A stretch of 37,063 bases of DNA from Candidatus Methanosuratincola thermotaenarum (lineage in GTDB: Archaea; Thermoproteota; Methanomethylicia; Methanomethylicales; Methanomethylicaceae). The translations under genes and the position numbers were made by a program. Under the pieces are notes generated by a model. The model saw nothing but the letters and a program-made list of their open reading frames with translations. It had not been told where the DNA came from and made no database searches. The stretch is from contig JAULTB010000004.1 in NCBI GenBank assembly GCA_038801655.1, forward strand, positions 1-37,063, written 5' to 3'. Every line of letters begins with the position of its first letter. The first letter of the stretch is position 1. Positions 1,929 through 26,248 of this stretch are shown here, piece by piece.

Positions 1929-2933
1929 ATGAAGACCTCGTACATAATAGGTTTGGTTGTTGTGGCAATCATAGTGATCGCAGGGGCTTACTACTACACG
2001 ACAACCCTGAGTCCGCAGCCTCAGCAGTTCAAGGTAGCCGCCATCTACATCTCCCCATTGGAGGAACCATGGAACCAGGCGCTGCACCAGTCGCTGTTGA
2101 AGGCGAAGGATGAACTCGGAATCGTGTACAACTACTCCGAGAACGTTGGCGACTCGACCGTTGCGATGGTGATGACACAGTACGTCTCAGCCGGATTCAA
2201 AATGATCTTCCCGCACAGCTGGAGTTACCACCCTGTGACAAATGCGACCGCAGCCCAGTACAGAAGCGTATTCTTCGCGCAGGGCTCAGGCATGAACATG
2301 GAATACGGGAACAACACGGTCCTCTATGACTACCACATTCAGGAAGCCGCCTATGTGGCTGGCGCAATCGCTGCTAAGATAACCAACACAAGCAAGATAG
2401 GGATCGTAACCGCGTTCCCGGGTGTCGGGGATGTGGACAACCTGCTGAACGGCTTCATTGCAGGGGCCAAGTCGGTCAATCCAAACGTGACTATAGTCAT
2501 ATCCTACATATATGACTGGTATGCACCGTCAAAAGCGAAGGAGGCTGCCGCTGGGCTTATCGAGTCCGGCGTTGACGTGATATACTCCGAGAGATACGGC
2601 GTCTTCGAGGCATGCAAGGACAGCACTGGCAAGATAATTGCCTATGCTTTCGGCAACATCGTGGATCAGAACAACGCTTCTGATGCTGTGATCGGGAGCG
2701 TAGTGTGGGACACCTACCCGATGGTAAAGGAGCTCATACAGCGAGCCCAGAATGGGACTTTCACCCCTGGGGATTACATCGCCTCAATGAGAGAGGGCAC
2801 ATCCAAGTTCGTCTGGAACCCAGTCAACGCTGCCAAATTCCCTGATGCCAAGGCATACAGCGACACCCTTGTGCAGCAGATAATCAATGGCTCGGTGGTA
2901 GTCCCTCTCAACTTCGGTCCACCGAGCCCATAA
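1929..2933 (+). CDS. BMP-family ABC transporter substrate-binding protein (purine/nucleoside type)
   Basis: N-terminal membrane anchor, PLEEPW motif, EAAYVAGAIAA, KIGIV and GFIAGAKSVNP. ATG at 1929 preferred to the upstream TTG. Confidence 0.85.
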   Translation: MKTSYIIGLVVVAIIVIAGAYYYTTTLSPQPQQFKVAAIYISPLEEPWNQALHQSLLKAKDELGIVYNYSENVGDSTVAMVMTQYVSAGFKMIFPHSWSYHPVTNATAAQYRSVFFAQGSGMNMEYGNNTVLYDYHIQEAAYVAGAIAAKITNTSKIGIVTAFPGVGDVDNLLNGFIAGAKSVNPNVTIVISYIYDWYAPSKAKEAAAGLIESGVDVIYSERYGVFEACKDSTGKIIAYAFGNIVDQNNASDAVIGSVVWDTYPMVKELIQRAQNGTFTPGDYIASMREGTSKFVWNPVNAAKFPDAKAYSDTLVQQIINGSVVVPLNFGPPSP

Positions 2934-2936
2934 GGG

Positions 2937-4502
2937 GTGGCAATCACGCCACTTTCTTCCCCTTTTTTTGAGAAAAGAGAGGCCAGCTCAACGCCTCAGA
3001 ATGAAGAATATGCGATATTCCTAAATAACATATCCAAGACGTTCCCGAACGGCACCGTGGCAAACAAGGATGTGACCTTGGGGATATTGAGGGGCGAGGT
3101 CCATGCCATACTCGGTGAGAACGGCGCCGGGAAGACCACGCTGATGAGGATAATCTCCGGGATCCTGAAACCGGACTCGGGGGAAATTTTCATTGACGGG
3201 AAGCCAGTGAAAATAAGGGATCCAAGGGACGCGTCCCGGCTCGGGATAGGCATGGTGCACCAGCACTTCACGCTCATCCCTGAGTTCACTGTGCGGGAGA
3301 ACATTGCCCTGGTCCTTGCAACCTCACCTTGGCTGGATCTGAAAAAAGTTGACGAGAAGATATACGCCGTATCGAAGGATATGGGGCTCGAGATCGACCC
3401 CGAATCGAAGATCGAGAGCCTGCCCGTTGGCAAGAGGCAGCTAGTTGAGATCCTCCGCCTCCTCTGCCAGGACGTTAGAATCCTGATACTTGACGAGCCT
3501 ACTTCGGTCTTGACGCCGATCGAAGTTGATTCCTTCTTCAAGATGATAATGAATCTGAGGTCGTCAGGAAAGACCATTGTGCTAATCACCCACAAGATGA
3601 AAGAGGCTCTTCAGATAAGTGACCGGATAACTGTACTCCGGGGCGGGAAGGTGATCAGGACTATCCCGACCTCGGAGGCAAATGAAGCCCTCTTGGCGTC
3701 GCTTGTGGTCGAGGGCATGCTTCCAGCCCCAACGCTGAGGCGCGGCGCCCCGGGGGATGTTGTTCTAAAAGCCGAGTCCCTCAAAGTGAAAGATGACCGC
3801 GGGAGGACTGCGGTTGATGGCCTGAACTTGACGGTCAGATCCGGGGAGATTGTCGGGATCGCGGGCGTGGCAGGCAACGGCCAGAAGGAACTGGTGGAGG
3901 CTATAACCGGTCTAAGGAAGGTCGAGTCAGGGGCGGTCAAGCTCTTGTCGCAAGACATCACGAATAAACCGACACGATTCATAATCGAGAAGGGCATCTC
4001 CTACATACCTGAGGACAGGATGCATAGGGGCGTGGTGCTCACAATGGGCGTCCACGAAAACTTGGCTTTAAAGTGCATCGAGAGGTCGCCGATGAGCAAG
4101 AGCAAGATAATTGACAGGAGATCGATGGTGAAGAATGCCGAGAGCCTGATATCGAAGTTCTCGATAAAGGCTTCGGACCCGTGCACTTCTGTCGAGAATC
4201 TCTCAGGCGGTAACATACAGAAGCTTATAGTTGCAAGGGAGCTCTCAAATGGCGGGCTTGTCCTCATAGCGGAGCAGCCGACCGCCGGATTGGACATAAA
4301 GGCATCAGAGGCTGTGCACCAAAAGCTAGTGGAATTGAGGTCGAGGGGAGTTGGGATCCTGTTGGTCTCCTCAGACCTTGACGAGATAATGAAGTTGAGC
4401 GACAGGATATGCGTGATCTTCGGTGGCAAGATCGTTGGGGAGTTCGTGCCAGAGAACCTGGATATCGAAAGGCTCTCCAGGTTGATGCTGGGGGCTGAAT
4501 GA
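2937..4502 (+). CDS. CUT2/nucleoside-type ABC transporter ATPase (two ABC domains)
   Basis: GENGAGKTT, GMVHQHF, ILDEPT, LITHK, GVAGNGQ and LSGGNIQK. True start may lie a few codons downstream. Confidence 0.93.
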   Translation: MAITPLSSPFFEKREASSTPQNEEYAIFLNNISKTFPNGTVANKDVTLGILRGEVHAILGENGAGKTTLMRIISGILKPDSGEIFIDGKPVKIRDPRDASRLGIGMVHQHFTLIPEFTVRENIALVLATSPWLDLKKVDEKIYAVSKDMGLEIDPESKIESLPVGKRQLVEILRLLCQDVRILILDEPTSVLTPIEVDSFFKMIMNLRSSGKTIVLITHKMKEALQISDRITVLRGGKVIRTIPTSEANEALLASLVVEGMLPAPTLRRGAPGDVVLKAESLKVKDDRGRTAVDGLNLTVRSGEIVGIAGVAGNGQKELVEAITGLRKVESGAVKLLSQDITNKPTRFIIEKGISYIPEDRMHRGVVLTMGVHENLALKCIERSPMSKSKIIDRRSMVKNAESLISKFSIKASDPCTSVENLSGGNIQKLIVARELSNGGLVLIAEQPTAGLDIKASEAVHQKLVELRSRGVGILLVSSDLDEIMKLSDRICVIFGGKIVGEFVPENLDIERLSRLMLGAE

Positions 4503-4503
4503 T

Positions 4504-5559
4504 TTGGTGGGGCGCCAGCTGACAATCTCAAGGGGCACAAAGCGATCGATTGTCAAGGCATTGCTGTCGGTGGTGCTGACGCTTGCCGTGACTTCGGTTG
4601 TCTTCCTGATTAACAACGTCAACCCAATCTTAGCATTTATCTACATGTTCCAGGGGGCTTTCGGTGACATAAACCTCGTTTCTGAGACCCTGATAAGGAT
4701 GACCCCCATACTGATAGTCTCACTGGGCCTGGCCGTATCTTTCAAGTGCAAGATATGGAACATCGGGGCAGAGGGACAGCTCTACATAGGTGCGATGCTT
4801 GGCACCATCGTCGCGATCGGCGTAGGCGGCGGTCCGCTGTCTTTGTTGGCTGCGCTGGTCGCCGGGGCGGCTGGCGGTCTCCTCTGGGCTGCAGGGCCTG
4901 CATTGATGAAGGTCAAGCTCGGAATCAACGAGGTGATAACAACATTCCTGATGAACTTTGTCGGGATCTATCTCGTGCAGTGGATGATCTCTTACCCTTT
5001 CAGGAGCCCTGATACCTACTTCCCTGAGTCTTCTGCAATTCCATCCTCATCCGCCCTGGCAGTAATCCTGCCGGGGACCAGGCTCCACCTGGGCGTGGCC
5101 CTTGCCCTTGCGCTAATCCCTTTAGTCTATTTCCTTCTCGAGAGGACTACTTTCGGTTACAAGGTGAAGGTAGTTGGGGAAAACCCTGAAGCAGCAAGGT
5201 ACGGCGGGATGGAGATAGGCAAAGTGATCTTTGCATCCCTTGTATTCAGCGGGCTGCTGGCTGGCCTCGCCGGGATTACTGAGGTGATGGGGATACAGTT
5301 CAGGGTGAGGGGTTCGCTGTCACCCGGATATGGATACACAGGCATAGTGGTGGCGCTGCTTGGCAACAATAACCCCCTGGGGGTCGCGCTTGCTTCTCTC
5401 TTCTTGGCTGCCATAATGAACGGCTCCTCGACGCTCGCCTGGACACTGAACATACCGATGGGGATAGTTGACCTTATGCAGGGGATCCTGTTCATATTCG
5501 TGCTCGCTTCTGAGCCGCTGGTGCGGCTCCTCGAGAGGCGTGGGGTGCTGAAGCTATGA
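4504..5559 (+). CDS. Nucleoside-type ABC transporter permease 1
   Basis: WNIGAEGQ, NEVITT, GENPEAARYGG and GYGYTGIVVALLG motifs; multiple TM segments. Confidence 0.9.
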   Translation: MVGRQLTISRGTKRSIVKALLSVVLTLAVTSVVFLINNVNPILAFIYMFQGAFGDINLVSETLIRMTPILIVSLGLAVSFKCKIWNIGAEGQLYIGAMLGTIVAIGVGGGPLSLLAALVAGAAGGLLWAAGPALMKVKLGINEVITTFLMNFVGIYLVQWMISYPFRSPDTYFPESSAIPSSSALAVILPGTRLHLGVALALALIPLVYFLLERTTFGYKVKVVGENPEAARYGGMEIGKVIFASLVFSGLLAGLAGITEVMGIQFRVRGSLSPGYGYTGIVVALLGNNNPLGVALASLFLAAIMNGSSTLAWTLNIPMGIVDLMQGILFIFVLASEPLVRLLERRGVLKL

Positions 5560-6497
5560 TCGAGCTGTTAGCCTTGACAGGTCTGGCTGCCGCCACCCTG
5601 AGGGTTGCTGCCCCGCTCCTGCTGGCCTCGCTCGGCGAGACAATCGCTGAGAGGGGAGGCATGCTGAACCTGGGACTGCAGGGTGCGATGCTCGTGGGCG
5701 CATTCTCCGGCTTCATGGGTGCCTATTTCGCTGGTAGCCTCTGGATCGGGCTGATATCAGCCATCATTGGGGGGATCCTGGCCACTATGCTCTTCGGCAT
5801 TCTGGTGATAAATCTCGATCTGGATCAGGTGGTTTCCGGCCTGGCGATCAACCTCCTCGCGAGCGGCCTGACGCTTTACTTCACCAGGGTGATCTTCACG
5901 GGTGGCGTCTCGCCCTACCTGGGAGAGCTCTTCGGTCCGATGCCGATCCCGTTCCTGTGCGATATACCTGTCTTGGGGGAGGTCCTATTCACGCAGACTG
6001 GGTTCGTGTACCTGGGACTGGTATCCGTGCCTCTCATATACGTGCTTCTGACGAAGACCTCATTTGGCCTCCGCCTCAGGTCAATCGGAGAGGATCCTGT
6101 AATAGCCTCCTACCTTGGCATAAATGTCGTGAAAATGAGGTACGCTGCGCTTCTTGCAGAAGGCGTTCTTGCCGGATTGGCCGGCGGGTTGCTGACTATA
6201 TCGATGTTCAACACTTTTGATCCTAGGATAGTGGCTGCGAGGGGTTTTGTCGCCGTCTCAATAGTCATCCTGGGCAGGTGGAACCCTTGGGGGGCGCTCG
6301 CGGGTTCGCTCCTCTTCGGATTCACAGAGGCCCTCTCTCTGAGGGTCGGAATAATATTCCCGGAGCTTTCAGGAGCCTCGATCAACCAGCTCTTCGCTCT
6401 GCTTCCTTACCTGGTCGCGCTCGTCGCGCTTGTTGTTGGCGGTAGAGGCGTCAGGGGCCCTGCCAGCCTGGGGAAGAGGATTGGGAGAGAGCGATGA
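5556..6497 (+). CDS. Nucleoside-type ABC transporter permease 2
   Basis: LGETIAERGGMLNLGLQG, DQVVSGLAINL, GRWNP and LPY motifs. ATGA overlap with permease 1. Confidence 0.9.
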   Translation: MIELLALTGLAAATLRVAAPLLLASLGETIAERGGMLNLGLQGAMLVGAFSGFMGAYFAGSLWIGLISAIIGGILATMLFGILVINLDLDQVVSGLAINLLASGLTLYFTRVIFTGGVSPYLGELFGPMPIPFLCDIPVLGEVLFTQTGFVYLGLVSVPLIYVLLTKTSFGLRLRSIGEDPVIASYLGINVVKMRYAALLAEGVLAGLAGGLLTISMFNTFDPRIVAARGFVAVSIVILGRWNPWGALAGSLLFGFTEALSLRVGIIFPELSGASINQLFALLPYLVALVALVVGGRGVRGPASLGKRIGRER

Positions 6498-6558
6498 TCT
6501 CTCCTTCTATTCAAGCGTCTCTTTTGCCCATTTGGAAAAAAAGAGGGAATAATGAGAA

Positions 6559-7935
6559 CTAGGCGATTTCGAGACCCAGGTCCGAGAGCTCTCTTGCCAC
6601 TTTGTCGTAAAGACCTTGCCATTCTGCCTTGGGTCTTGCGGACGCCATGTCATAGAGCTGTTGGAACGTCTTGCCCTTGGGCGCCTTGAAGATGTCAAGC
6701 CTCTCCTCGTACCTCGGGAGTATTTTGTTCAGGATCTCGTTCGCATCAGCCCTGCCCATGCCTGCCGCGGCAGCTGCAGCCTCCTTCAGCATCCTTGCCT
6801 CAAGCCCGGTGGAGTGGTCGACCAGCTTACCTCCGCATGATCCGCAGCCCATCACGTTCATGCCTGCTACCGATGCTGCGATCCCGCCCGCAGCCGCCTC
6901 CAAGAGGAGCATCTCCTCCCCAGGTCCGCTTGCGCAGTAGCAGTCATAGACGCTCATTATCTCAGAGTTCCTCGAGAGCGCCTGCCCGACCGTGCTAATT
7001 GCCCAAAGGCCCGGACGATCCGTGCCGTTCAGGTTCTTCACGTTGGTAAGGCTGCAGTAATGGTAGCTTGCGCTGTAGCAGACGGCTCCAGCGATATGCT
7101 CTGCCACATTCACTACCGCTGTCCCCTCGGGCCCGCCTGCGTAGCCTCCCAAGATTGGGGTCATCAGGTTGCCGATGTGGATCCCGTAGCTCTGGAGGTG
7201 CTCCACGAGCGAGAGGTGCTGGAGGCTGGTCTTGAGCTCAATCATCTGGGAGACTATCATTCCGTCGCTCGGCCTCAACCCGTATGCAGGGTCCAGTGCG
7301 CAAAGCTTTGCCTCGGGGCTTACGACTGCAACGTCGTTTATGTGCATCCCTGGCCTACCTGCTTGGCTTATCGCCTCCCTCGCCCACCTGGCCAGGAGCC
7401 GCGCCGCCCTGAACTCCTGCGGCGTCCCCTTCCTTATCTTGAAGCCGTCTATTGTGGCCAGCGTCCCTGCACCCAGGGAGTCTATTGCCCCCTCCTGCGC
7501 GAAGCTCCGCAATGTCTTAACGTAGATCTCACCCTCGGTGCAGAGCGTTCCCGTCGGGCCCGCGTGTATCACAGGAGGTCGAGGATCCTCGATCCGCCTC
7601 ATGTTCATCACGAACGCGTCCTTGCCCGAACCGAGCAGGATGCTTTCGGGGAGTGACTTCAGTACCATCTTTATCTCGCCCTCTTCGAACATGATTGATC
7701 GCTTCGTGGTCTGGCAGTAGAATCCCATCTCGAGCAGGAGCCTCATCGCCGCCTCGTACACATCGTCTGCCATAGAGTCATCGGTGCAGACCGGTCGCTC
7801 CGGGTCGTACCTTATGTCGTATTCCTTGACCAGCTCCCTCGTTCTCTTCATCAGCTTCATATCAAAGTCCTTCTCATCCATGAACGGGCCATCAAGCGCC
7901 CTCCTGGTCACTTCGTCAAGCCTGTAAGTCTTCAT
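6559..7935 (-). CDS. mtmB: Monomethylamine:corrinoid methyltransferase (MtmB) family protein, pyrrolysine-free
   Basis: 458 aa with AGPTG, AGRPGM, ELK, PILGGYAGG, TGLEARM and APKGKTFQQLYD, collinear with recalled Methanosarcina MtmB. No in-frame TAG. Confidence 0.88.
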   Translation of the reverse strand: MKTYRLDEVTRRALDGPFMDEKDFDMKLMKRTRELVKEYDIRYDPERPVCTDDSMADDVYEAAMRLLLEMGFYCQTTKRSIMFEEGEIKMVLKSLPESILLGSGKDAFVMNMRRIEDPRPPVIHAGPTGTLCTEGEIYVKTLRSFAQEGAIDSLGAGTLATIDGFKIRKGTPQEFRAARLLARWAREAISQAGRPGMHINDVAVVSPEAKLCALDPAYGLRPSDGMIVSQMIELKTSLQHLSLVEHLQSYGIHIGNLMTPILGGYAGGPEGTAVVNVAEHIAGAVCYSASYHYCSLTNVKNLNGTDRPGLWAISTVGQALSRNSEIMSVYDCYCASGPGEEMLLLEAAAGGIAASVAGMNVMGCGSCGGKLVDHSTGLEARMLKEAAAAAAGMGRADANEILNKILPRYEERLDIFKAPKGKTFQQLYDMASARPKAEWQGLYDKVARELSDLGLEIA

Positions 7936-7949
7936 TTCATATCACCTGT

Positions 7950-9317
7950 TCAGAACTCCAGCCCGGTCATTTCCGAGATCTCTTTTTTCATCTTCAGGTA
8001 AGTCGCATTCCACTCTGGCTTGGGGATCACCCTTCCCACGTCATAGAGCTCCGGGAATGGCTTGCCAATGTCAGGCTTTCCTTGCTTGTCTGCGTACCTC
8101 TTCACAAGCTCGACGACGATTGCATTGGCTGACTTGCGATTGAGTTTCGATCTCACCGTTGCATGCGCCACCTCTGCCATGAACCTGGTCTCGAGCCCAG
8201 TCGCATGCGGGTACTTCCCGTTGGTGGCCGAGACCCCTAGCGGGTGGCTCCCCGTAACTACATTCGTAATCGTGTTCGCTGCCGCCTCATAGAACACCAT
8301 CTCGCTCCCGGCGCCAGCCGAAGTCCAAACGTCCCCCATGATGATGAACGGGGCATTCCTTGCCATTGCCTGGCCGACGACGTTCAAGTTCCACATGCAC
8401 TCTGGTGCGCTCGTGCTCATATACCTGAAGTGTATTGGGTGGCAGACATGGAAGTCCGATCCGTACATGGCCCTGCCGAGAAGGAATGAAGCAACAAAGC
8501 AGACTGCCACCCCTTCCGGTCCGCCTGCATAGCCCCCTATGATCGGGTCGACCAATGTGACATTGTGCGCCCCATACTCGTAGAAGTTGACAACCTTGGA
8601 GATCCTGTCGAAGTCCGTCTTCAGCTCGTTCAGCAGCGCTACAAGGTGCGAGTCCGTCCTCCTCATGTACCTCTCGCTGGCTATCGCAAGGTCGCCCATT
8701 GCCGAGACGCTGCTCTCCGCGGCTATGAAGCTGATGCCAGGCCTCCCTGCGCGCCTAGCTGCCTCCCTGAGCATTGACAGCTCCCTCCTTGTGGCCTGGA
8801 TCTCGAGCGGCGTCTTTGTCCTGACCTTCCTCCCCTCGACCACCGCGAGCCCTCCGTTGTTGATCATGTCGACTAAGGGCTCCTTCATGTAAGATATCGC
8901 CATCGGGAGGTACCATTCCTCAGGTATGGCTGCCCCGGCCTGGCCTCCGCAGATTATAGGGGCGCGCTCGTCCTCGATCCCCCTGGCGTAGAGTATCCTG
9001 GAATCCTTGTTCTGCCCGATGATGAGCCTCCTTGGGGCCGAGATTATGCCCTCCTTCAGCTCGTACTCGTCAAACTTGACGACCCTCTTGGTGTCGATGC
9101 AGTATATTCCCGCCTCAAGCGCCAGCCTCAGCCCGGCCTCGAAGACGTCGTCCGCGAGCGAATCGTCCGAGGTGATTATCTGCTTCGGGTCGTACCTTAT
9201 GTCGTATTCCTTGACCAGCTCCCTGCACTTCTTGGCAACGATCTTTAGGTCGAACTCCGTCTCTTCCATGTAAGTTCCTGTTTCAGTCCTGTCGATTACT
9301 TCCCAGATCGAGGTCAT
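7950..9317 (-). CDS. mtmB: MtmB family protein paralogue, pyrrolysine-free
   Basis: 455 aa with GIYCIDTKRVVKF, AGRPG, DSHLVALLNELK, PIIGGYAGG and TGLETRFM. No in-frame TAG. Confidence 0.88.
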   Translation of the reverse strand: MTSIWEVIDRTETGTYMEETEFDLKIVAKKCRELVKEYDIRYDPKQIITSDDSLADDVFEAGLRLALEAGIYCIDTKRVVKFDEYELKEGIISAPRRLIIGQNKDSRILYARGIEDERAPIICGGQAGAAIPEEWYLPMAISYMKEPLVDMINNGGLAVVEGRKVRTKTPLEIQATRRELSMLREAARRAGRPGISFIAAESSVSAMGDLAIASERYMRRTDSHLVALLNELKTDFDRISKVVNFYEYGAHNVTLVDPIIGGYAGGPEGVAVCFVASFLLGRAMYGSDFHVCHPIHFRYMSTSAPECMWNLNVVGQAMARNAPFIIMGDVWTSAGAGSEMVFYEAAANTITNVVTGSHPLGVSATNGKYPHATGLETRFMAEVAHATVRSKLNRKSANAIVVELVKRYADKQGKPDIGKPFPELYDVGRVIPKPEWNATYLKMKKEISEMTGLEF

Positions 9318-9973
9318 GGGGCACCTCTCCTCTGGAGGAGCTCCTTTGCCACCTTGACAGCCTCGTCCCCGTCGTCACCGTACCCGTCGGCGCCGATCGA
9401 GGCTGCCCATTCGCGCGTGACTGGGCCTCCGCCGACCATCACTAGGTAATTCCCCCTTATTCCTCTCTCTTTCAGGAGCGAGATGAGGTCCTCCATGTAT
9501 GGCATCGATGTCGAGAGTAGCGTGGATGCACAGATGAAGTCAGCCTTGACCTCCTCTGCTTTCTTTATCAGCTCGTCTATCGGGACATCCCTGCCCAAGT
9601 CATAAACCTCAAAACCGTTGGCTCTCATCAGCATCGCGACGATGTTCTTGCCAATGTCATGGATGTCCCCTGTGATGGTGGCGATTACGACCTTGCTCTT
9701 GACAGTGGCTTTGCCCCGCTTTAGCGCCTCGGGCTCGAGCACTGCCAGGGCGGATTTCATCGCCTCTGCTGCAAGCATCACCTCAGGGAGGTATATCTTG
9801 AGCTGGCTGAAATCGTCTCCAACCCTGCTCATCCCCCTCATAAGCCCCTCGTTTATTGCCTTTAGGGGCTCGATCCCTGCTTCAAGGATCTTCTTAGATA
9901 GCTCTACTGCCTTGGCGTCATCTCCCGCGTAGACGGCGTTTGCCAATTCCTCGAATAACTGTGCTTCGCTCAT
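9314..9973 (-). CDS. Methyltransferase corrinoid (B12-binding) protein, MtmC/MtbC-like
   Basis: DIHDIGKNIV (DxHxxG), YLPEVM, DLGRDVP and VGGGPVT. ATG at 9973 follows a GTGAGG SD; overlaps the mtmB start. Confidence 0.92.
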   Translation of the reverse strand: MSEAQLFEELANAVYAGDDAKAVELSKKILEAGIEPLKAINEGLMRGMSRVGDDFSQLKIYLPEVMLAAEAMKSALAVLEPEALKRGKATVKSKVVIATITGDIHDIGKNIVAMLMRANGFEVYDLGRDVPIDELIKKAEEVKADFICASTLLSTSMPYMEDLISLLKERGIRGNYLVMVGGGPVTREWAASIGADGYGDDGDEAVKVAKELLQRRGAP

Positions 9974-10076
9974 CGGATAAAACCTCACTTGAAGTCGTCC
10001 TCGGCTGTTTTAATACTTTTTCGGTTTTCTTGCAAAATTCAGCTGTCTAGGGATAGCGCTGACATTAAAAATTGAT

Positions 10077-10098
10077 AAAAAAAAGATAAAAAAAGAGG
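10077..10098 (-). terminator. Oligo-T terminator after aor
   Basis: Minus strand reads cctctttttttatctttttt just after the aor stop. Confidence 0.45.
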
Positions 10099-10111: not shown

Positions 10112-11992
10112 CTAGCAGCTTATGCCGCTCTTGCTCAGGCAGTCCGCGACGTCCTCGAGACCCATCCTGACGAGCTTCTCCCTTGTGGGCACGCCGGTCT
10201 TCGGGTCCCATCCCTTTAGCGCATAGAAGTCGTCGAGCATCTTGTTTAGGGTCGGCTCGTCGGTGTACATGCCCTGTGACGGCCCCTCCGGTATCGGCTC
10301 CTCCAGGAACCTCCTCGGGAGCGTGTCATCCTTCCTCCTTATCCCTGTCCTGACATTGAAGGCCCTCTCCAGATCAAGAATCCGCTCGGCGACTGTTGTC
10401 AGCTCCTCCAGGGTGTAGCCGAACCCTGTGACAGGGTTTATCATGTCCACCCATTTCTGGGTGAGCGTGAACCCGAGCAGCCTCTCAAGGAAGTGGCAGT
10501 TCACTAGGCTGTCCCCGATTGTGGTCATCTGCTGCGTCCCTATGACCCACGCTGCCTTGCCCTCGACAGCCTTCCTGTCTGAGGCTCCAGCGTACTCGCC
10601 TGTGGGCCTGGGGTCATGGTGGCTGCCTCCCCTGGTCGCAGTGGAGTATCCAAGCGCCATGCCCCTCAGAGCCCTTGCGGAGTGCCCAGGTATCTCGAGC
10701 CCCTTGACCTGGATTGCGAAACGCTCCGATCCGCCTCCGATGACTCTGGCCGCCCTCAGGGATCCCTCTGCCATCAGGTTGCCTATCCCTTCCCTCTTCG
10801 CTGTCTTCTCGATGTATGCGATCATTGCGTCGTCGTTGCCGAATTTGAACTCCACGCCGTCTGTGTTCTCCTTGTTTATCAACCCCTTTTCGTACGCCTC
10901 CATCAGGAACGAGACCATCACACCGTAGCTAACGGTGTCCATGCCCCACTCGTCGCAGAGGCTGTCCCCCTTGATTATCGCGCCTAGGTCGTCGATTCCG
11001 CACATCGATCCTAGCGAGTAGATCGTCTCGTACTCCGGCCCCTCAGATATGGCGCCCTTCCACTTGCCCGACTTCGCTGAGAAGACCTTGCTGCAGGCGA
11101 TCGGGCACGCAGGGCACGCCGTGTCCTTGTCCCAGAACTCCTTCTTCAGCCGCTCCCCCGAGATGTTCTCCCAGTTCTGGAAGAACTCTGTCTGGTGGTT
11201 GTAGGATCCCATCGCGCCCAGCATCTTCCCTATGCTGGCGACAAGCGCCGGCGTCCCGTATGTCGGGAGGCCAACCGCTATCCCGGGCACCTTCTTTGCC
11301 TCCTCCTTGTACCACTGCATCCAGGCTTCGTAAGCCTCTGGATCGGCAACCTCGTTGGTTCCAGAGCCCCTCACTGCTATCGCCTTGAGCTTCTTGGAGC
11401 CTAGGACCGCGCCGACACCTCCCCTGCCCGCCGCCCTGTACTCTGTGATAACGCATGCATACCTAACCAGGTTCTCCCCAGCCGGGCCTATCGCAGAGAC
11501 GCAAAGGTTTGGGTCGCCGACTTCCTCCTTTATCATCTCTTGGGTCTCCCCGGTCAGCTTCCCCCACAGCCTCTCGGCAGACCTGAACTCGACCTTCCCG
11601 TCCTCGACGAAGAGATATGTCGGCTTGTCGGCCTTGCCTGTGATCAGGAAGCCGTCGTACCCGGCGTATTTTATCTGGGCGCCGATGAATCCTCCGCTAA
11701 CGCTGTCGAAATAGCCGTTAGTCAATGGCGATTTGGTGGCCATGTAGTATTTGCCAGCTGTCGGGGAGTTGATCCCTTGGAATGGCCCGGTCATCATCGC
11801 CACGACATTCGTAACATCGAACGCATCCATCCGCGGATCGACCATGTCAAAGAGGTACCTCACCGCGAATCCGTTGCCCCCGATGTACTTCCTGGCGAAT
11901 TCGTCCGTCACATCTATGGTGGCTGTCTTCTTGGTGGTCAGGTTTATTGCCAATACTTTGCCTTTATACCCGCTGTACTTCATCATGATCAC
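10112..11992 (-). CDS. aor: Tungsten-containing aldehyde:ferredoxin oxidoreductase family protein
   Basis: KSPLT, IGPAGEN, AAGRGGVGAVLGSKKLKAI, CPACPIAC, EGPEYET and DEWGMDT motifs. Start may be ATG 11986 or 11983. Confidence 0.93.
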   Translation of the reverse strand: MIMMKYSGYKGKVLAINLTTKKTATIDVTDEFARKYIGGNGFAVRYLFDMVDPRMDAFDVTNVVAMMTGPFQGINSPTAGKYYMATKSPLTNGYFDSVSGGFIGAQIKYAGYDGFLITGKADKPTYLFVEDGKVEFRSAERLWGKLTGETQEMIKEEVGDPNLCVSAIGPAGENLVRYACVITEYRAAGRGGVGAVLGSKKLKAIAVRGSGTNEVADPEAYEAWMQWYKEEAKKVPGIAVGLPTYGTPALVASIGKMLGAMGSYNHQTEFFQNWENISGERLKKEFWDKDTACPACPIACSKVFSAKSGKWKGAISEGPEYETIYSLGSMCGIDDLGAIIKGDSLCDEWGMDTVSYGVMVSFLMEAYEKGLINKENTDGVEFKFGNDDAMIAYIEKTAKREGIGNLMAEGSLRAARVIGGGSERFAIQVKGLEIPGHSARALRGMALGYSTATRGGSHHDPRPTGEYAGASDRKAVEGKAAWVIGTQQMTTIGDSLVNCHFLERLLGFTLTQKWVDMINPVTGFGYTLEELTTVAERILDLERAFNVRTGIRRKDDTLPRRFLEEPIPEGPSQGMYTDEPTLNKMLDDFYALKGWDPKTGVPTREKLVRMGLEDVADCLSKSGISC

Positions 11993-12429
11993 TTCCTTGC
12001 CTCAGGTAACCATACGAGCGTTAGCGCTCCCTTGGGGCAGTCCTTGACGCAGCTCGGATCCCCGTCGCAGAGATCGCATATTATTGGCAGCTTGGTCTCC
12101 GGCTGGAGCTTTATCCCGTGGAACGGGCAAGCCTTCACGCAATCACCGCATGAATTGCATAGCTTCGGGTCCACCACGATGTTCCCGCCCTTGTAGGAGA
12201 GTGCCTTCGTAGGGCAGGCGGTTATGCAGAAGCGCTTCTCGCACCTCGTGCAGATGTGGCACTTGAACATCAGTGGGCCCTTCCTGACTATCGTTATTCG
12301 CGAGATCGAGTCCCCGAACTTCTTGTAATGGTATTTCGAGCAGCTCAACTCGCATATCTTGCAGAACGCACATTTCTTTATGTCAAACCTTATCAAGGGC
12401 TTCTTTTCCTGGGCTACAACAACGCTCAT
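11989..12429 (-). CDS. Multi-[4Fe-4S] ferredoxin subunit (DmsB/HydN-like) partnering AOR
   Basis: Four Cys clusters: CAFCKICELSC, CHICTRC..CITACP, CNSCGDCVKACP and CDLCDGDPSCVKDCP. Confidence 0.9.
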   Translation of the reverse strand: MSVVVAQEKKPLIRFDIKKCAFCKICELSCSKYHYKKFGDSISRITIVRKGPLMFKCHICTRCEKRFCITACPTKALSYKGGNIVVDPKLCNSCGDCVKACPFHGIKLQPETKLPIICDLCDGDPSCVKDCPKGALTLVWLPEARK

Positions 12430-12479
12430 AGAGATCCCATGCCTTGTCTTCGATTAAAAGTCAAGTATTACTTATTCCT

Positions 12480-12540
12480 TTTGTATAAATGGCTTATAGG
12501 GAAAGTAAAAGGGTTTTTAAAAGCCCTGTGTGATATATAT
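12480..12540. promoter_or_regulatory. Divergent promoter region with near-palindromic TATA element
   Basis: AT-rich gap between divergent genes; AGGGTTTTTAAAAGCCCT (12510-12527) is an imperfect palindrome. Confidence 0.45.
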
Positions 12541-12557
12541 ACATGGAGGAACTTTTA

Positions 12558-13796
12558 ATGGATAAACCTTGGATGACTTCCAAATGGTTTGTGAGCCCAT
12601 TCAACTATGACCGATCCATGGTCCCGATGCATCCCGACGTCAAGAAGGTTGAGTTCCATGATGTGACACTCAGGGATGGGGAACAGCAGGCGGGGGTCGT
12701 ATTCACGAAATACGACAAGATAGCGATCGGGAGATCCCTGAACAGGGCCGGCGTTGACAGGGTTGAAGTTGGGACGCCTGGATTCTCCTCGGAGGATCGC
12801 GAGGCGCTCCGGGCATTGGTCGCCGCTTCTCTCGAATGCAAGCTCTTCTCCTGGTGCAGGAACAACCGGCTGGACATATCAGCCGCGAAGGACTGCGAGA
12901 GCTGGGGCGTCACAATTGAGATCCCTGCGAGCGAGGTGATGATGAAGGGCAGCTACTCGACCAGCTTGGATGATGTTGTATCGAAGACTGCTGAGAATGC
13001 CGCATACGCAAAGTCCGAGGGGATGCGCGTCGTGCTCCTCCTCGTGGATTCGACCAGATCGAACTTTGACATTCTGAAGAAGATAATCTCTGGAACCGAA
13101 AAATACTGCGACTCATTTGCCCTCTCCGACTCTTTCGGTTCGATACTCCCGATGGCAATGTACGGGTTTGTCAAGGAAGTGCGCGGGATGACCACTAAGC
13201 CTATTGAGGTGCATTGCCACAACGACTTTGGGATGGCTACAGCGAACACTCTGGCAGGGGTAGCAGCAGGGGCATCCGCTGTACACGTCACCGTTAATGG
13301 CATGGGAGAGAGGGCCGGCAACACGTCACTGAGCGAGGTAGCGATCGGACTCAAGCTGCTTATGGGAATCGACTCAAATATCAAGCTGGGGGAGCTTTAC
13401 CGCCTCTGCAAGCTTGTGGCGGACATCTCTGGCTTCCCGATCCCTCTGAACAAGCCTATAGTGGGCGCAAATGTCTTCAACATCGAGTCAGCCCAGTCGG
13501 CGCAGTGGACGTCCAAGGCAGAGGAAGGTTACCTCTCGTACCCGTTTGCATTCGATCTCGTGGGTCACCCTGAACCAAGGATAATCCTGAGCAAGAAGAG
13601 CGGGCCTTACAACCTGGACCTCAAGCTCAAGGAACTCGGTCTCGAGATCCCGAGGGAGAGGTACCCGGAGATCCTCGGAAGGATATACGAGATATCGCTG
13701 CAGAAGAGGGGCGCCGTCTCAGACGAAGAATTCCTTGAGATCCTCCAGGATCTGGGGCTGTACAGGTACAAGCAGGAGGATCTTATGAGGGCATAG
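12558..13796 (+). CDS. DRE-TIM metallolyase (LeuA/homocitrate synthase family) without regulatory domain
   Basis: DVTLRDGEQ, HCHNDFGMA and NGMGERAGN. ATG 12558 follows GGAGGA. Confidence 0.85.
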   Translation: MDKPWMTSKWFVSPFNYDRSMVPMHPDVKKVEFHDVTLRDGEQQAGVVFTKYDKIAIGRSLNRAGVDRVEVGTPGFSSEDREALRALVAASLECKLFSWCRNNRLDISAAKDCESWGVTIEIPASEVMMKGSYSTSLDDVVSKTAENAAYAKSEGMRVVLLLVDSTRSNFDILKKIISGTEKYCDSFALSDSFGSILPMAMYGFVKEVRGMTTKPIEVHCHNDFGMATANTLAGVAAGASAVHVTVNGMGERAGNTSLSEVAIGLKLLMGIDSNIKLGELYRLCKLVADISGFPIPLNKPIVGANVFNIESAQSAQWTSKAEEGYLSYPFAFDLVGHPEPRIILSKKSGPYNLDLKLKELGLEIPRERYPEILGRIYEISLQKRGAVSDEEFLEILQDLGLYRYKQEDLMRA

Positions 13797-13833
13797 AAAG
13801 CAATAACTTAATCATTTTTTATTTTGTCGAACC

Positions 13834-14619
13834 ATGAGGATATTCAAGGATGGAATTACAGTCGGGGCGCATCCTGCATTATACCTCCCTGAGTATGGAA
13901 CACTGGTTATCGCAGACCTCCACATAGGGTATGAGAGCTCGCTGGGCCAGAAAGGGGTCTTCCTGCCGCAGAACGCCTATGCCGCCATGCGCAATAGGAT
14001 CGAAGATTTGCTCAGGGCTACAGGCGCCAAGAGGCTGGCGATTCTTGGCGACTTGAAACATGAATTCGGGAAGCCTTCGCCACAGGAGTGGGTTGAGGTC
14101 AAAGACCTGCTCGGAACGCTTGGGGCTATGGGAGTGGAGACCCATGTGGTGCGCGGCAACCACGACAACTATGTCATCGCCATCCTCTCAAGGTATGGCG
14201 TCCACCTCCATGAGCATTTCCTGATTATGGACCACATTGTGCTGACGCACGGACATTTGGAGGTAGATCTGCCTGAGAACGCTAAAGTCATCTTAATTGG
14301 TCACGAGCACCCTGCAGTCTCATCATTGGACTCCTCGGGCGCCAGGTACAAGTTCAAGTGCTTCCTCGTCGGGAAATACAAGGGCAAGCGCCTTGTGGTG
14401 CTGCCTGCATTCTCCCCGCTTTCGGCCGGCTCGGGTATAAATGAGATAGATCGCGAGGATTTGCTATCTCCTTACCTGCGAAAATCAGACATAGATGGAT
14501 TCGTGCCCTTCGCGGTGGAGGACGGGATAGGGATTTTCCGTTTTCCTTCAATCGGAGTCATGCGCAAGATCCGTAAAGGGGGCGAGGCTACCGGCCAAGG
14601 CAAGAATAAATATATATAA
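13834..14619 (+). CDS. Metallophosphoesterase (archaeal ICC-like, COG1407 type)
   Basis: DLHIG, GDLKH, GNHD, HGH, GHEHP and LPAFSP motifs. Confidence 0.88.
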   Translation: MRIFKDGITVGAHPALYLPEYGTLVIADLHIGYESSLGQKGVFLPQNAYAAMRNRIEDLLRATGAKRLAILGDLKHEFGKPSPQEWVEVKDLLGTLGAMGVETHVVRGNHDNYVIAILSRYGVHLHEHFLIMDHIVLTHGHLEVDLPENAKVILIGHEHPAVSSLDSSGARYKFKCFLVGKYKGKRLVVLPAFSPLSAGSGINEIDREDLLSPYLRKSDIDGFVPFAVEDGIGIFRFPSIGVMRKIRKGGEATGQGKNKYI

Positions 14620-14752
14620 AATATATTTTGTATATTAAGTGCTAAAAAAAGAATTTTTTTTCAAAGATAAATATCGTATATATCTAGCATATTTAAGTAT
14701 ATATAGAGAGTTTTTAAGAGCATTCTTGATATTTTATTTAACAGTGATTGGA

Positions 14753-15058
14753 ATGCGGATTGAGAATAAGAAAATAGAGGGTGACATTAAGATAGCCGAG
14801 GAGCTTACCGTGAATGGCACCATAACGGGGAGTGCAGTCGTGTCAAACGGCGGCAAGCTTATACTCAATGGGATCGTCAATCAGGACGTGATCCTCGAAA
14901 GGGGATCTTATGTTGAAATCTACGGCGAGGTCGAGGGCAACATTCACAACCACGGCGGCGAGCTGAAATTGTACGGGAAGCTTAATGGCTCGCTTTACAA
15001 GGATTCAGGCGTGATCGTGATATACCATAACGCTGTCATCAAAGGCAAGATCTACTGA
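14753..15058 (+). CDS. Bactofilin-like / polymer-forming beta-helical protein
   Basis: 101 aa of repeating (I/V)xG(x)(I/V) units (IEGDI, VNGTITG, IYGEVEGNI, IKGKI). The upstream ORF extension is AT-rich non-coding. Confidence 0.6.
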   Translation: MRIENKKIEGDIKIAEELTVNGTITGSAVVSNGGKLILNGIVNQDVILERGSYVEIYGEVEGNIHNHGGELKLYGKLNGSLYKDSGVIVIYHNAVIKGKIY

Positions 15059-15158
15059 TTTTTCTATCTCTTCCATCCCCTCGAATTGATTAGCGTTAAG
15101 CCTCCAAGATTTGACCGGTTTAGGGCATATTCAGGATTATTGCCAGCCTGGGATCTGC

Positions 15159-16046
15159 TCAATACTGGCGCCCATCATCTTTACTCGTATCCGTCTGAAT
15201 GGTAGAAGGGGCTCTAGTTTCGGAGGCCGTGGGGGGTCCAGCGGAGGCAGCGCAGGTGCTGGATGCGCTTGGCGCCCCATCCCTGAGCATTGAAGCGAAG
15301 GCCTCTGCCCAGGAAAGCGCCGCCCGCCCTCTTTCTGTTATCATGTAAGTTTTGTTCACCCTGTCCGCTGCCAAATAGCCCTCCTTTGCTAGCATCCTCA
15401 GGTGGAACTGGAGATGCCCAGTCCTCAAGCCAAGAGCTCTGCTCATCTCTGTGAACTTCATGCTCCCTTGACTGAGCAACCTAAGCAAGGTAATCCTCCA
15501 CCTGTTAGAGAGCGGCATCAGGGCATTCTCGATCTCGATGGGTTCTGGCAACCCATTCATTTTCGTTTTACCCGTGATGGCTTTGTCGGGCGGATCCGAG
15601 GGGGCTCGGCTGCATTTGGATCCGAGCGTGGTGTCAAAGACAGTTATCAGGATCTTGACTTCTTTTGTGAGGCTCGACACGCTCTCCATGCAGGCTGCGT
15701 CGAGGCAGGGTCTCTCAGAGGATTCGATCAGCGCTTCCAACTGAGTCAAGAGGTGCAGCGCGCCCGTCGTGTCGCCCCTCGCAAACCGCCTGAGCCCTTC
15801 CTCGATAGTCTCTCTCAATTTCTCAAAGCAGTGCTCCTTCAGCCTGCATTCTGAAGTTCTGCCAATTCCATTCATCTCAGGATTGATCAAGCCTTGGGTC
15901 TCTATGCCGACAAGCGTCCTGACCTCGTCACAGAAAGCCCGGCGGAGGTCTTCATACCTGATCTTACCGAAATCCCTCCCCAGCGCCCTTATCTCATTCC
16001 TCAGCCCTTCGATCTCCTCAATCAGTTTCGTCTCCAACGGTATCAC
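15159..16046 (-). CDS. Winged-helix (ArsR-like) transcription regulator with Cys-containing N-terminal domain
   Basis: PLSNRWRITLLRLL..MKFTEMSRALGLRTGHLQFHLRML..GY..YMITERG. Confidence 0.8.
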   Translation of the reverse strand: MIPLETKLIEEIEGLRNEIRALGRDFGKIRYEDLRRAFCDEVRTLVGIETQGLINPEMNGIGRTSECRLKEHCFEKLRETIEEGLRRFARGDTTGALHLLTQLEALIESSERPCLDAACMESVSSLTKEVKILITVFDTTLGSKCSRAPSDPPDKAITGKTKMNGLPEPIEIENALMPLSNRWRITLLRLLSQGSMKFTEMSRALGLRTGHLQFHLRMLAKEGYLAADRVNKTYMITERGRAALSWAEAFASMLRDGAPSASSTCAASAGPPTASETRAPSTIQTDTSKDDGRQY

Positions 16047-16115
16047 TTTAATAATTAAATATTAAAAAATAATACTTATATATACTGCATGGGTATTAAT
16101 AGCGGGGGTAATTTT

Positions 16116-16526
16116 GTGGTAGCTTTGCCTGCAGATGTAATGAAGATCCTTAACGATCCGCGGGCCTCTAAAGTGCTTGGAACAAAGACTCCTGAGGGTC
16201 ATGTCCATATCATCCACGTCGGCAGCCTGATGGCACCAGATCCAAACACAATAGTCGTAGGTGCGATACTGATGAAGCGGAGCAGCAGCAACATGGAGAA
16301 CATGAAAAAATCGAGGGAGCTCGTATCCCTCCTAGTAACGAAGGAGACGGCCTCGTACGAGATAAGGGCAGAGGTTAAGGATTACCTGGCTTCTGGAGAT
16401 ATTGTTGACAGGATGAATGTTGAGCTAAAAAAGATCGGCCTCTCAGCGAGGGGCGTGTGGGTGCTCGAGCCAAAGGAAGTTTGGAACCAGAGTGCAAGCT
16501 ACGAGGCTGGCAAGAAGATAGCCTAG
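16116..16526 (+). CDS. Pyridoxamine 5'-phosphate oxidase-like / FMN-binding split-barrel protein
   Basis: KVLGTKTPEGHVH, SYEI and WNQSA patterns. GTG 16116 follows a GGGGGT SD. Confidence 0.6.
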   Translation: MVALPADVMKILNDPRASKVLGTKTPEGHVHIIHVGSLMAPDPNTIVVGAILMKRSSSNMENMKKSRELVSLLVTKETASYEIRAEVKDYLASGDIVDRMNVELKKIGLSARGVWVLEPKEVWNQSASYEAGKKIA

Positions 16527-16617
16527 CCCGACTCTACTTTTTTTGTTTTTTTCCCTCAATAAGCCTTCAAAGTCGCCCGTTACGCTTTACGACCTCTTGT
16601 AGTTCAAATAAGAAATG

Positions 16618-16627
16618 TTTATATAAA
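16618..16627 (+). promoter_or_regulatory. TATA box for the ilv transcript
   Basis: TTTATATAAA preceded by purine-rich AGAAA (BRE-like); implies a 5' leader of about 140 nt before ilvB. Confidence 0.5.
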
Positions 16628-16791
16628 AATCCCCTTATTTATGAGACTAAGTGATAATGATGAGGAGTACTGCTGGTGCCTGCCTTCTATTCGTTCATGC
16701 CTGACCGTCTGCCGTTTACTGAAGCCGTTCCACCTCGCAGCAGTCCTCTCATATCCGCAAAGAATTCTTATGATGATCAGGAGGGGCTTTT

Positions 16792-18495
16792 ATGAGAGTT
16801 TCAGGGGCTAAAGCCTTAGTGGAGGCGCTGAAGGACGAGAAGGTCGAAGTGATCTTTGGCATACCTGGTGGCTCAACGATACCTTTCTACGACGCTCTTT
16901 ATGAATGCGCTGAGAAGGGGGATCTCAGGCACATACTTGCCCGCCATGAGCAGTGCGCGGCACACATGGCCGACGGGTACGCAAGGGCGAAGGGCATACC
17001 TGGCGTATGCACTGCCACAAGCGGCCCTGGGGCTACAAACCTTGTTACGGGGATAGCCGTCGCGCATATGGACAGCTCACCAGTCGTTGCGATAACGGGG
17101 CAAGTCCCCCGTTCTATGATCGGGAAGGATGCATTCCAAGAGGCTGACATTGTAGGGATAGTGACCCCCATCACCAAGTATGCCTTCCAGATAACGCGGG
17201 CCTCGGAAATACCCGATACCGTTAGGGCTGCCTTCATGCTTGCAAACACAAACCGGAAGGGCCCTGTATTGGTCGACATCCCGAAGGACGTCTTCTACGA
17301 GGAGGTCGACTATATGGAGGCAGAGAAGGTCAGGATAGGCGGGTACGTCGTGAAAAGCGGCAATCCCCATCCCTATTCGATTAAGCGGGCGGTGGGCCTC
17401 ATACTCGAGTCTGAGCGCCCGATCATCATAGCCGGAGGAGGGGTAATCGCTTCAAGCGCAAGCGCTGAGCTCGTGAGGCTCGCCGAGATCATACCCGCTC
17501 CGGTGGCGACAACCTTGATGGGAAAGGGGGCTATCCCGGAAATCCACCCCCTCTCGCTGGGCATGATCGGGATGCACGGGAAAGGGGAGGCAAACATGGC
17601 TGCGGAAGAGGCTGACCTTATCATAGCAGTTGGCATGCGATTCAATGACCGGACAGTGGGCAGGATGGAAAAATTCGGCGAGAACGCCAAGATAGTGCAC
17701 ATAGACATTGATCCTGCGGAGATAGGGAAGAACTTGGGTGTAGACGTCCCAATTGTGGCTGACGCGCGGAAGGCACTCGCGGCCCTCGCTGACCGCCTGC
17801 TCGAGGTGGGGATAAGGAAGAAAGAGAGCGAGTGGTCGAAAAGGATCGCCGATCTGAAGGAGAAGTACAAGGAATTCTACAACAGCGAGGAAGCCAAGGG
17901 GTCCCTCAGCCCAAAGCGCATAATGAAGACCCTCCGCGCCTGCATACCTGAAAGGTCAATCGTTACCACCGGAGTGGGGCAGAACCAGATGTGGGCGGCC
18001 CTTCATTTCCAGGTTTTGGAACCGCGCACATTCATCACATCTGGGGGGCTGGGGGCTATGGGCTTCGGGTTCCCGGCCTCGCTCGGCGTCAAGGTTGCGT
18101 GCCCAGACAGGCCCGTCTTCAACATAGACGGCGACGGGAGCTTCCTGATGACCGAGCAGGACTTGGCTACTGCTGTGGTGGAGCGGATCCCGACCGTGAC
18201 TCTGGTGATGGACAACAGGGTGCTTGGGATGGTTAGGCAGTGGCAGTGCATGTTCTGCGACAAGCGCTACTCAGAGACGGATCTGGGGGCAGTCCCTGAC
18301 TTTGCCAAGCTTGCGGAGGCGTACGGGGCGGAAGGGATCAGGGTGGAGAGCTACAGTGAGCTCGAGTCAGCGATAAGGAGGAGCGTCTCTGCCGAAATGC
18401 CTGTTGTGATAGACGTCCCTGTCTCGCAGGACGAGAAGGTGCTCCCGATGGTTCCTCCTGGCAAGACGCTCAGGGAGGTGGTCTGGTTTGGCTGA
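16792..18495 (+). CDS. ilvB: Acetolactate synthase large subunit
   Basis: FGIPGG, RHEQ, TSGPGATN, GVGQNQMW and the GDGS...N TPP motif. Confidence 0.97.
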   Translation: MRVSGAKALVEALKDEKVEVIFGIPGGSTIPFYDALYECAEKGDLRHILARHEQCAAHMADGYARAKGIPGVCTATSGPGATNLVTGIAVAHMDSSPVVAITGQVPRSMIGKDAFQEADIVGIVTPITKYAFQITRASEIPDTVRAAFMLANTNRKGPVLVDIPKDVFYEEVDYMEAEKVRIGGYVVKSGNPHPYSIKRAVGLILESERPIIIAGGGVIASSASAELVRLAEIIPAPVATTLMGKGAIPEIHPLSLGMIGMHGKGEANMAAEEADLIIAVGMRFNDRTVGRMEKFGENAKIVHIDIDPAEIGKNLGVDVPIVADARKALAALADRLLEVGIRKKESEWSKRIADLKEKYKEFYNSEEAKGSLSPKRIMKTLRACIPERSIVTTGVGQNQMWAALHFQVLEPRTFITSGGLGAMGFGFPASLGVKVACPDRPVFNIDGDGSFLMTEQDLATAVVERIPTVTLVMDNRVLGMVRQWQCMFCDKRYSETDLGAVPDFAKLAEAYGAEGIRVESYSELESAIRRSVSAEMPVVIDVPVSQDEKVLPMVPPGKTLREVVWFG

Positions 18496-19000: not shown

Positions 19001-19112
19001 TCGCCTTGTGGATCGCCCCCTCTATTTTTTCCTGATGCCGTGCCCTCCACAAACGGGAAAAAGGCAAATGTTTTATTTTCCCAGTCCAAATATGATTCCA
19101 GAGGAGATCTCA

Positions 19113-19334
19113 ATGGGCTACATGTGCGGATGCATAAACGGGCACACCTGGTGGTACTTCACCGACGCGACCCCATGTCCATACTGTGGCACCACTGAGA
19201 AGGTCTGCACCGAGTACGAACGCAAGGACCTCGTCAAATACGAATGCGAGAAGAGCCACAAATTCTGGGCCGACTACAAGGTCACCATGTGCCCGCTATG
19301 CGGCACCAAGAACGTAACCAAGAAGAGCGCCTAA
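19113..19334 (+). CDS. Small tandem zinc-ribbon protein (73 aa)
   Basis: Two repeats of C-x3-H...CPxCGT; ATG 19113 follows GAGGAG; oligo-T terminator follows. Confidence 0.7.
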   Translation: MGYMCGCINGHTWWYFTDATPCPYCGTTEKVCTEYERKDLVKYECEKSHKFWADYKVTMCPLCGTKNVTKKSA

Positions 19335-20546: not shown

Positions 20547-20629
20547 GCCTCAATTGATTATAGCCATTCCTTTCTTTTTTTGGAAAAAATAATATACTCA
20601 TTTTCAGTAATTAATATCTGGTCTTGTAA

Positions 20630-23065: not shown

Positions 23066-23071
23066 TTCATG

Positions 23072-23758: not shown

Positions 23759-23768
23759 TGCCCATTGG

Positions 23769-26247: not shown

Positions 26248-26248
26248 G

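Follow-up and report, generated by a model that had tools for sequence, protein, structure and literature searches.

The subject of this analysis is a 37,063-nucleotide stretch of DNA from Candidatus Methanosuratincola thermotaenarum (contig JAULTB010000004.1 of assembly GCA_038801655.1, positions 1 to 37,063; hereafter the window), and within it a trio of tightly packed genes that the open reading frame (ORF) calls place on the minus strand in the order mtxC, B, A. A and B are paralogous members of the MtmB family of methyltransferases that lack pyrrolysine (Pyl), and it is well supported that they form a pyrrolysine-independent pair of substrate-specific methyltransferases (MT1) that loads one corrinoid carrier, MtxC, and feeds methyl-reducing methanogenesis. 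Pyrrolysine is usually presented as a requirement for methanogenesis from methylamines, the significance statement of PMC12626013 being an example. A relative, Methanosuratincola petrocarbonis LWZ-6, has been cultured and its genome has been closed; it grows on monomethylamine, and all the MtmB-type genes that it has lack both pyrrolysine and the two adjacent glutamates. The new point made here is the link between the gene pair and the monomethylamine phenotype of this Pyl-free isolate, a link that we did not find in the searchable literature.

The assignment of the two enzymes to the MtmB family is based on sequence profiles and on predicted structures. The B-type enzyme B, with 455 residues (7950..9317, minus strand), matches the Pfam MtmB profile PF05369 with 368.5 bits over profile positions 2–448 of 450, and the A-type enzyme A, with 458 residues (6559..7935, minus strand), matches it with 338.5 bits over positions 6–450, the cut-off being 25 bits; no NCBIfam model matched either protein. 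The paralogues are 39% identical to each other, and HMMER aligns both of them over nearly the full length with MtmB of Methanosarcina barkeri (A with 1TV2 at E = 1.9e-68, B with 1L2Q at E = 1.7e-70). The AlphaFold model of A (pLDDT 95.6) superimposes on 1L2Q with a TM-score of 0.94 and a root-mean-square deviation of 1.8. The model of B (pLDDT 96.5) has its secondary-structure elements in the same order, the fold search against the PDB having been run with A only. As both genes are intact and conserved, they are not chance ORFs. The initial annotation had described two paralogues with one corrinoid partner, and this description is borne out by the product of mtxC, a corrinoid (B12) carrier of 219 residues (9314..9973, minus strand). 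It contains the Pfam domains B12-binding and B12-binding_2 above their curated cut-offs, and the cobalt-ligand motif DxHxxG is present as DIHDIG at residues 108–113. With 218.9 bits, it passes the cut-off of the family model TIGR02370 (215.3 bits), it does not reach those of the MtgC, MtbC and MtaC equivalogs, and its nearest solved chains are MttC (7XCN_M), 1Y80 and MtmC (3EZX).

The same annotation had reported that neither paralogue has an in-frame amber codon, that Asn200 and Ile198 stand at the place of Pyl202, and that hydrophobic residues replace the active-site glutamates, and all of this withstood the closer analysis. A and B have no internal stop codon, and the sole in-frame TAG is the terminal stop of A. 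In the HMMER alignment, Pyl202, which is the X of AGRPGMGVXGPE in 1L2Q, corresponds to Asn200 of A (codon AAC, 7336–7338), and its counterpart in B is Ile198 (codon ATA, 8724–8726). The counterpart in A varies with the alignment, as HMMER selects N200, BLAST against B selects I199 and MAFFT selects V205, and no alignment places a lysine or a stop there. In both AlphaFold models, a strand begins straight after the GRPG sequence (residues 198–202 in A and 196–199 in B), and this register favours N200. The MAFFT register, in which an insertion of five residues brings Pyl opposite Val205 of A, was rejected on account of this strand position in A and in B. Glu229 and Glu259 are the residues of MtmB that we take, after the structure paper of 2002, to have their role near the pyrrolysine. 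A multiple sequence alignment that included three UAG-type MtmBs of the class Methanomethylicia matches Glu229 with Ile227 of A and Leu225 of B, and Glu259 with Leu257 of A and Leu255 of B; the three UAG-type proteins have Glu at both positions. HMMER by itself shifts the B counterpart of Glu259 to Asp257.

The initial annotation had also suggested looking for pyl genes in the genome, and the search agrees with the Pyl-free reading of the two genes. The source genome, which belongs to the genus Methanosuratincola in the class Methanomethylicia, comprises 1.09 Mb and is 79.7% complete. Within this sequence, the profile search found no PylB, the best PylS match scored 21.3 bits where 178 are required, and none of the 15 tRNAs found has the anticodon CUA. 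Two complete genomes were used for comparison, those of LWZ-6 and of Ca. M. verstraetei LCB70, whose B proteins are 96% and 98% identical to B of the window, respectively; they have no PylB and no PylS above the cut-off (best match in LWZ-6 22.6 bits). The identical PylS search yields 243–259 bits in three genomes of the class that have a UAG-mtmB, and thus detects PylS in relatives that possess it. A and B are the only PF05369 matches in the source genome as far as it is complete, and the tandem pair, without internal stops, likewise represents the only matches in LWZ-6 and LCB70, with the LWZ-6 proteins being 96% and 93% identical to those of the window. The MttB family PF06253 has no match in the source genome or in its two complete relatives, the profile search of the latter found neither MttB nor MtbB, and each of them encodes one MtaB. 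The source genome further contains mcrA, four genes for URO-D-type methyltransferases, and a RACo/RamA homologue.

According to the available part of its description, LWZ-6 reduces methanol and monomethylamine with H2 and does not reduce dimethylamine, trimethylamine, betaine or methanethiol (PMC12244365). This substrate range mirrors the inventory of MT1 enzymes, in which MtaB would account for methanol and the pair for monomethylamine. A low activity with monomethylamine, 11 nmol/min/mg, is given in the accessible portion of the report on MtqB, a characterised pyrrolysine-free MtmB (PMC13044021). We regard it as an even call that the module carries the monomethylamine flux of LWZ-6, be it as main or as side activity, with an imported N-methylated heterocycle as the second or the native donor. 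Somewhat short of even, in our estimate, is the statement that the Pyl-free pair is a monomethylamine:corrinoid methyltransferase that may also use imported N-methylated purine-like compounds. In the mechanism that we propose, A and B would be substrate-specific MT1 enzymes with a diverged, pyrrolysine-free MtmB fold that share one B12 carrier. The TIM-barrel funnel of each enzyme would hold a protonated or cationic N-methyl donor, which Co(I) on the common carrier would attack in an SN2 reaction to accept the methyl group, with no pyrrolysine imine adduct being formed. A second methyltransferase (MT2) of the URO-D type would hand the methyl group to coenzyme M, MCR would reduce it to methane with H2, and an activase of the RamA/RACo type would re-reduce oxidised cobalt. 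At least one of the two enzymes would accept monomethylamine, which would account for the monomethylamine-dependent methanogenesis of LWZ-6. The second enzyme may act on an N-methylated heterocycle, or such a compound may be the native substrate of high affinity; its uptake would be the task of the neighbouring BMP-type ABC importer. What we infer in this scheme is the chemistry, the nature of the donor and the way in which A and B share the work, while the data show the gene content, the family membership, the fold, the absence of Pyl, Glu229 and Glu259, the conservation, the genomic inventories and the gene neighbourhoods.

The trio is well conserved in related organisms. The order mtxC–B–A is kept in 16 of 16 related genome loci, one of which is cut at a contig end. 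PF05369 matches occur in 30 of the 62 genomes of the class and in 27 of the 31 genomes of the family to which the window belongs, and most of the positive genomes of the class have two adjacent Pyl-free genes. The dN/dS values of all three genes, obtained with five relatives (a sixth comparison was saturated), range from 0.03 to 0.13, with 0.06–0.13 for A and 0.04–0.08 for B, which indicates purifying selection on the trio. In a tree of 267 sequences, which was seeded from matches of A and B and represents a sample and not the whole family, 133 sequences form an A clade and 130 a B clade, separate from each other and each with a support of 1.0. The paralogues represent two Pyl-free lineages that are old and distinct. 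Both clades retain their own conserved residues around the Pyl position: the A clade is characterised by the motif GRPGMHI(N/S)DVA, which reads GRPGMHINDVA in A of the window, and H198 and D201 are nearly invariant in 127 of its sequences.

Convergent to the trio, an ABC importer of the BMP/PnrA type is encoded on the plus strand (1929..6497; Pfam Bmp, ABC_tran and BPD_transp_2). It consists of a substrate-binding protein (SBP; 1929–2933) that truly starts with ATG 1929 and not with TTG 1908, an ATPase with an ABC_tran domain (2937–4502), and two permeases of the BPD_transp_2 family (4504–5559 and 5556–6497). The apparent stops inside orthologues of the SBP fall upstream of the true start. Gene neighbourhoods suggest that the importer is probably linked functionally to the trio. 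It lies beside the trio, always convergently, in 13 of 16 Methanomethylicia loci, and the contigs end in the other three. Divergent copies adjoin B-type homologues at two loci (L074, 62% identity; L134, 57% identity), and many distant metagenome loci have the importer on the same strand as an A-type gene. Among the 31 genomes of the window's family, 25 have pair and importer, one has the pair only (this genome is 59% complete), none has the importer only, and five have neither. As the genomes are kin and the genes adjacent, so that a single deletion could remove both, this co-occurrence is weak evidence when taken alone. Of the solved structures, the atrazine-binding protein 6PI5 comes closest to the SBP, and the solved members of this SBP family bind N-heterocycles. 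At distant loci with A-type genes (44–51% identical), which are a sample seeded from A and B, a BMP-type importer or genes for purine-type deaminases or xanthine dehydrogenase (XDH) are found in 34 of 63 cases, and in 30 of 35 when loci of at least 6 kb are considered. The purine-type neighbours are arranged in no fewer than five gene orders and include an adenine-deaminase family gene that stays below its cut-off (381 versus 472.5 bits), a cog0402 amidohydrolase, an adenosine deaminase that is above its cut-off, a CDA-fold deaminase, and a pucD-like XDH. In the source genome, a search with five query proteins found no purine deaminase or XDH, and LWZ-6 and LCB70 have one distant Amidohydro_1 ORF each, far from the locus.

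Several observations weigh against monomethylamine as the donor in our proposal. A true UAG-mtmB together with pylS coexists with the pair in a genome of the same genus (G031) and in a further genome (G028), which suggests that the function of the pair is not the one already served by MtmB. The B clade includes a homologue from 'Ca. Formimonas warabiya' DCMF (P0063, 48% identical), and this organism cannot grow on monomethylamine according to the available portion of its description (PMC9768040). An importer of an N-heterocycle-binding family is an odd partner for free methylamine. Furthermore, the genus has other corrinoid modules without an assigned substrate, namely a URO-D gene with a corrinoid protein, and a corrinoid protein with MetE-like and MtrH proteins, and the pair is therefore the only known methylamine-type MT1 but not the only possible one. 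The initial annotation had proposed an unknown donor in place of monomethylamine. This stands in part: the importer and the purine-type neighbours do favour an imported donor, but the exclusion of monomethylamine is called into question by its use in LWZ-6, where the pair is the only known methylamine-type MT1. Since LWZ-6 has no other MtmB and neither MttB nor MtbB, the pair may be active on monomethylamine after all.

It is possible, though on balance doubtful, that an imported N-methylated purine-like compound, such as a methylated adenine, guanine or nucleoside, is the sole physiological donor and is directly demethylated by A and/or B, with LWZ-6 using monomethylamine via another route or by a weak side activity at 10 mM. 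The importer or deaminase/XDH genes at the distant A-type loci, the position of the importer next to the B-type homologues of L074 and L134, its co-occurrence with the pair in the family, the relationship of the SBP to 6PI5, and the fact that G031 and G028 have both the pair and the Pyl system all argue for such a donor. However, the growth of LWZ-6 on monomethylamine without another methylamine MT1 would be left unexplained, the purine deaminase and XDH searches described above gave nothing near the Methanosuratincola trio, and the importer of Methanomethylicia is convergent to the trio and not part of the same operon, with the adjacency making joint loss weak evidence. Amidohydrolases and adenosine deaminases of related type split off alkylamines when they act on N-alkylamino heterocycles. 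In a bridging idea, a deaminase could free monomethylamine from an imported N-methylamino heterocycle, and the Pyl-free MtmBs would then be true monomethylamine methyltransferases. We consider this unlikely: it fits the LWZ-6 phenotype as well as the deaminase neighbours of the distant A-type genes, which stand in bacterial contexts, but no such deaminase was found by these searches in or near the Methanosuratincola locus, and the adenine-deaminase neighbour does not reach its curated cut-off.

A quaternary-amine system that resembles MtqB/MtqC and uses choline, tetramethylammonium or a similar donor appears very improbable to us. As far as the accessible text goes, the only characterised pyrrolysine-free MtmB does use such donors (PMC13044021), and the exchange of Glu229 and Glu259 for Ile and Leu renders the pocket more hydrophobic. 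Yet LWZ-6 does not use betaine, choline and tetramethylammonium are absent from the substrates listed in the available part of its description (PMC12244365), and the neighbouring transporter is the BMP-type importer, with no BCCT or choline-type transporter nearby. With respect to the roles of the two enzymes, the initial annotation had considered a heteromer, and an obligate complex with one active and one structural subunit would be in agreement with the constant adjacency of A and B in Methanomethylicia, with the Shine–Dalgarno motif between them, with the single common carrier gene, and with the purifying selection on both. The wider distribution gives no support to this idea. Only A-type genes turned up in 54 of the 61 distant loci that have a classifiable gene, weaker relatives of B (39–43% identical) are single copies beside a corrinoid gene in other Thermoproteota, and the conserved residues around the Pyl position differ between the clades, all of which makes an obligate heteromer distinctly unlikely. 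The neighbourhoods of the single-copy relatives of B are variable and contain no substrate hint.

A and B agree with M. barkeri MtmB (1L2Q, 1NTH, 1TV2) in Pfam family, full-length fold, length, the strand at GRPG, and the GGYAGG region, and in both the trio and M. barkeri MtmB/MtmC the cognate corrinoid partner is of the TIGR02370 type. They differ from it in the lack of UAG and pyrrolysine (Asn200, Ile198), in the replacement of Glu229 and Glu259 by Ile or Leu, in an identity of only about 32–35%, and in that two paralogues are served by one carrier. The UAG-type MtmBs of G031, G025 and G028 (loci L039–L041), which are accompanied by pylS, share class and family with the pair and are each encoded next to a corrinoid gene. 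In contrast to A and B, they have a single in-frame TAG where Pyl is inserted, along with a PylS, they are 32–35% identical to A and B, and they reach 590–603 bits with PF05369, where A and B reach only 338–368 bits. MtqB/MtqC of Methanococcoides methylutens Q3c resembles the trio in that a methanogen combines a Pyl-free MtmB-family enzyme with a corrinoid protein of its own; in the accessible portion of the report, MtqB is a tetramethylammonium and choline:corrinoid methyltransferase that is weak on monomethylamine, and conserved Met/Cys and aromatic residues are given as the signature of its clade (PMC13044021). The trio differs by its host lineage and gene context and by the tandem pair, as MtqB is encoded by a single gene, and no quaternary-amine phenotype is known for Methanosuratincola. 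The pyrrolysine-free enzymes of the MttB superfamily (MtgB, MtcB, MtpB) offer a parallel as Pyl-free relatives that use a different N-methyl donor together with a corrinoid protein, but they belong to a different family, PF06253.

Pyrrolysine-free MtmB homologues as such were already known, and to one of them, MtqB, a function was assigned in 2026, as stated in the part of that report available to us (PMC13044021). The genes of the pair are routinely annotated as 'mtmB' in Methanomethylicia, an example being found in the available text of PMC10033731. Our literature search on Methanosuratincola or Methanomethylicia in connection with monomethylamine, pyrrolysine or mtmB found no discussion of the Pyl-free state in the papers examined, and none of the papers listed combined 'methyladenine' with MtmB. 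If it is true that the pair carries the monomethylamine flux, pyrrolysine would be no chemical requirement for methylamine use, and its raison d'être would need rethinking; predictions of methylamine use that are drawn from "mtmB" matches with or without UAG would also have to be revised. Use of an imported methylated heterocycle by the pair would instead extend the range of methane precursors by a new group. The existence of the isolate LWZ-6 makes the question directly testable.

The trio is probably one transcription unit with its own signals. The probable start of mtxC is ATG 9973, with a Shine–Dalgarno-like GAGGT 8 nt upstream, and the ORF listing begins at GTG 9988; the stop codon of mtxC overlaps the start of B, and GGTGAT lies 6 nt ahead of the ATG of A. 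A TATA-like box, AAAAGTATTAAAAC (10007..10020, minus strand), is located about 25 nt before position 9988 and is the probable promoter of the trio. A T-tract past the stop of A (6535..6543, minus strand) is its probable terminator, and T-tracts directly past the stop of an upstream gene at 10112 (10074..10096, minus strand) probably terminate the preceding unit. These promoter and terminator assignments follow what we take to be archaeal consensus features, and it is the TATA-like box, the Shine–Dalgarno motifs and the flanking T-tracts that lead us to read the trio as a transcription unit of its own. In the genus, the trio is immediately preceded by genes for a tungsten-type aldehyde:ferredoxin oxidoreductase (AOR) and a 4Fe-4S ferredoxin (10112–12429, minus strand). 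A functional link of these genes to the trio was rejected because the T-tracts and the TATA-like box intervene, and because relatives have histidine kinases, SDR or other genes inserted at this place or lack the AOR; AOR and ferredoxin are probably a separate unit. Four public sequencing runs were compared with the LWZ-6 locus, all of them assembled contigs that are unfit for the ranking of genes. Runs X1–X3 have a metatranscriptomic label and are probably DNA, and the RNA run X5 is thin over the trio.

Some further observations concern the surroundings of the trio and other corrinoid loci. In Methanomethylicia loci with a sufficiently long flank, a gene for a TatD-family metal hydrolase (1078–1836 in the window) lies directly upstream of the importer, and in one Methanomethylicales contig, genes for an NCS1 cytosine/purine-type permease, an S-Me-THD-like protein, and a hydantoinase A homologue precede the trio (L016, 282–5186). 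In another Methanomethylicaceae genome, a third and very divergent type of pyrrolysine-free MtmB, with the motif GREGLCVTG and about 30–35% identity to A and B, is encoded on the opposite strand directly beside UAG-mtmB and pylS (L040, G025:C34, 2968–4299). Elsewhere in the source genome, three URO-D-type genes and two corrinoid-protein genes are found just upstream of mcrA (L142, contig C74, ~11000–21300). When the complete genomes of LWZ-6 and LCB70 were searched for B12 domains, neither of these corrinoid genes proved to have a counterpart there. At another locus, genes for a corrinoid protein, a MetE-like (Meth_synt_2) protein and an MtrH homologue stand in a row (L140, contig C55, ~31600–34150), and the corrinoid module of this locus is also present in LWZ-6 and LCB70 according to B12-domain matches. 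Finally, the window contains a gene run on the minus strand (22373–33556) with baseplate-J (24670–26247), VgrG/injector-like (26684–27451) and tail-sheath (32189–33556) domains and several ORFs without a family match; the run has the look of a phage-tail-like or contractile-injection cluster, here in the genome of a methanogen.

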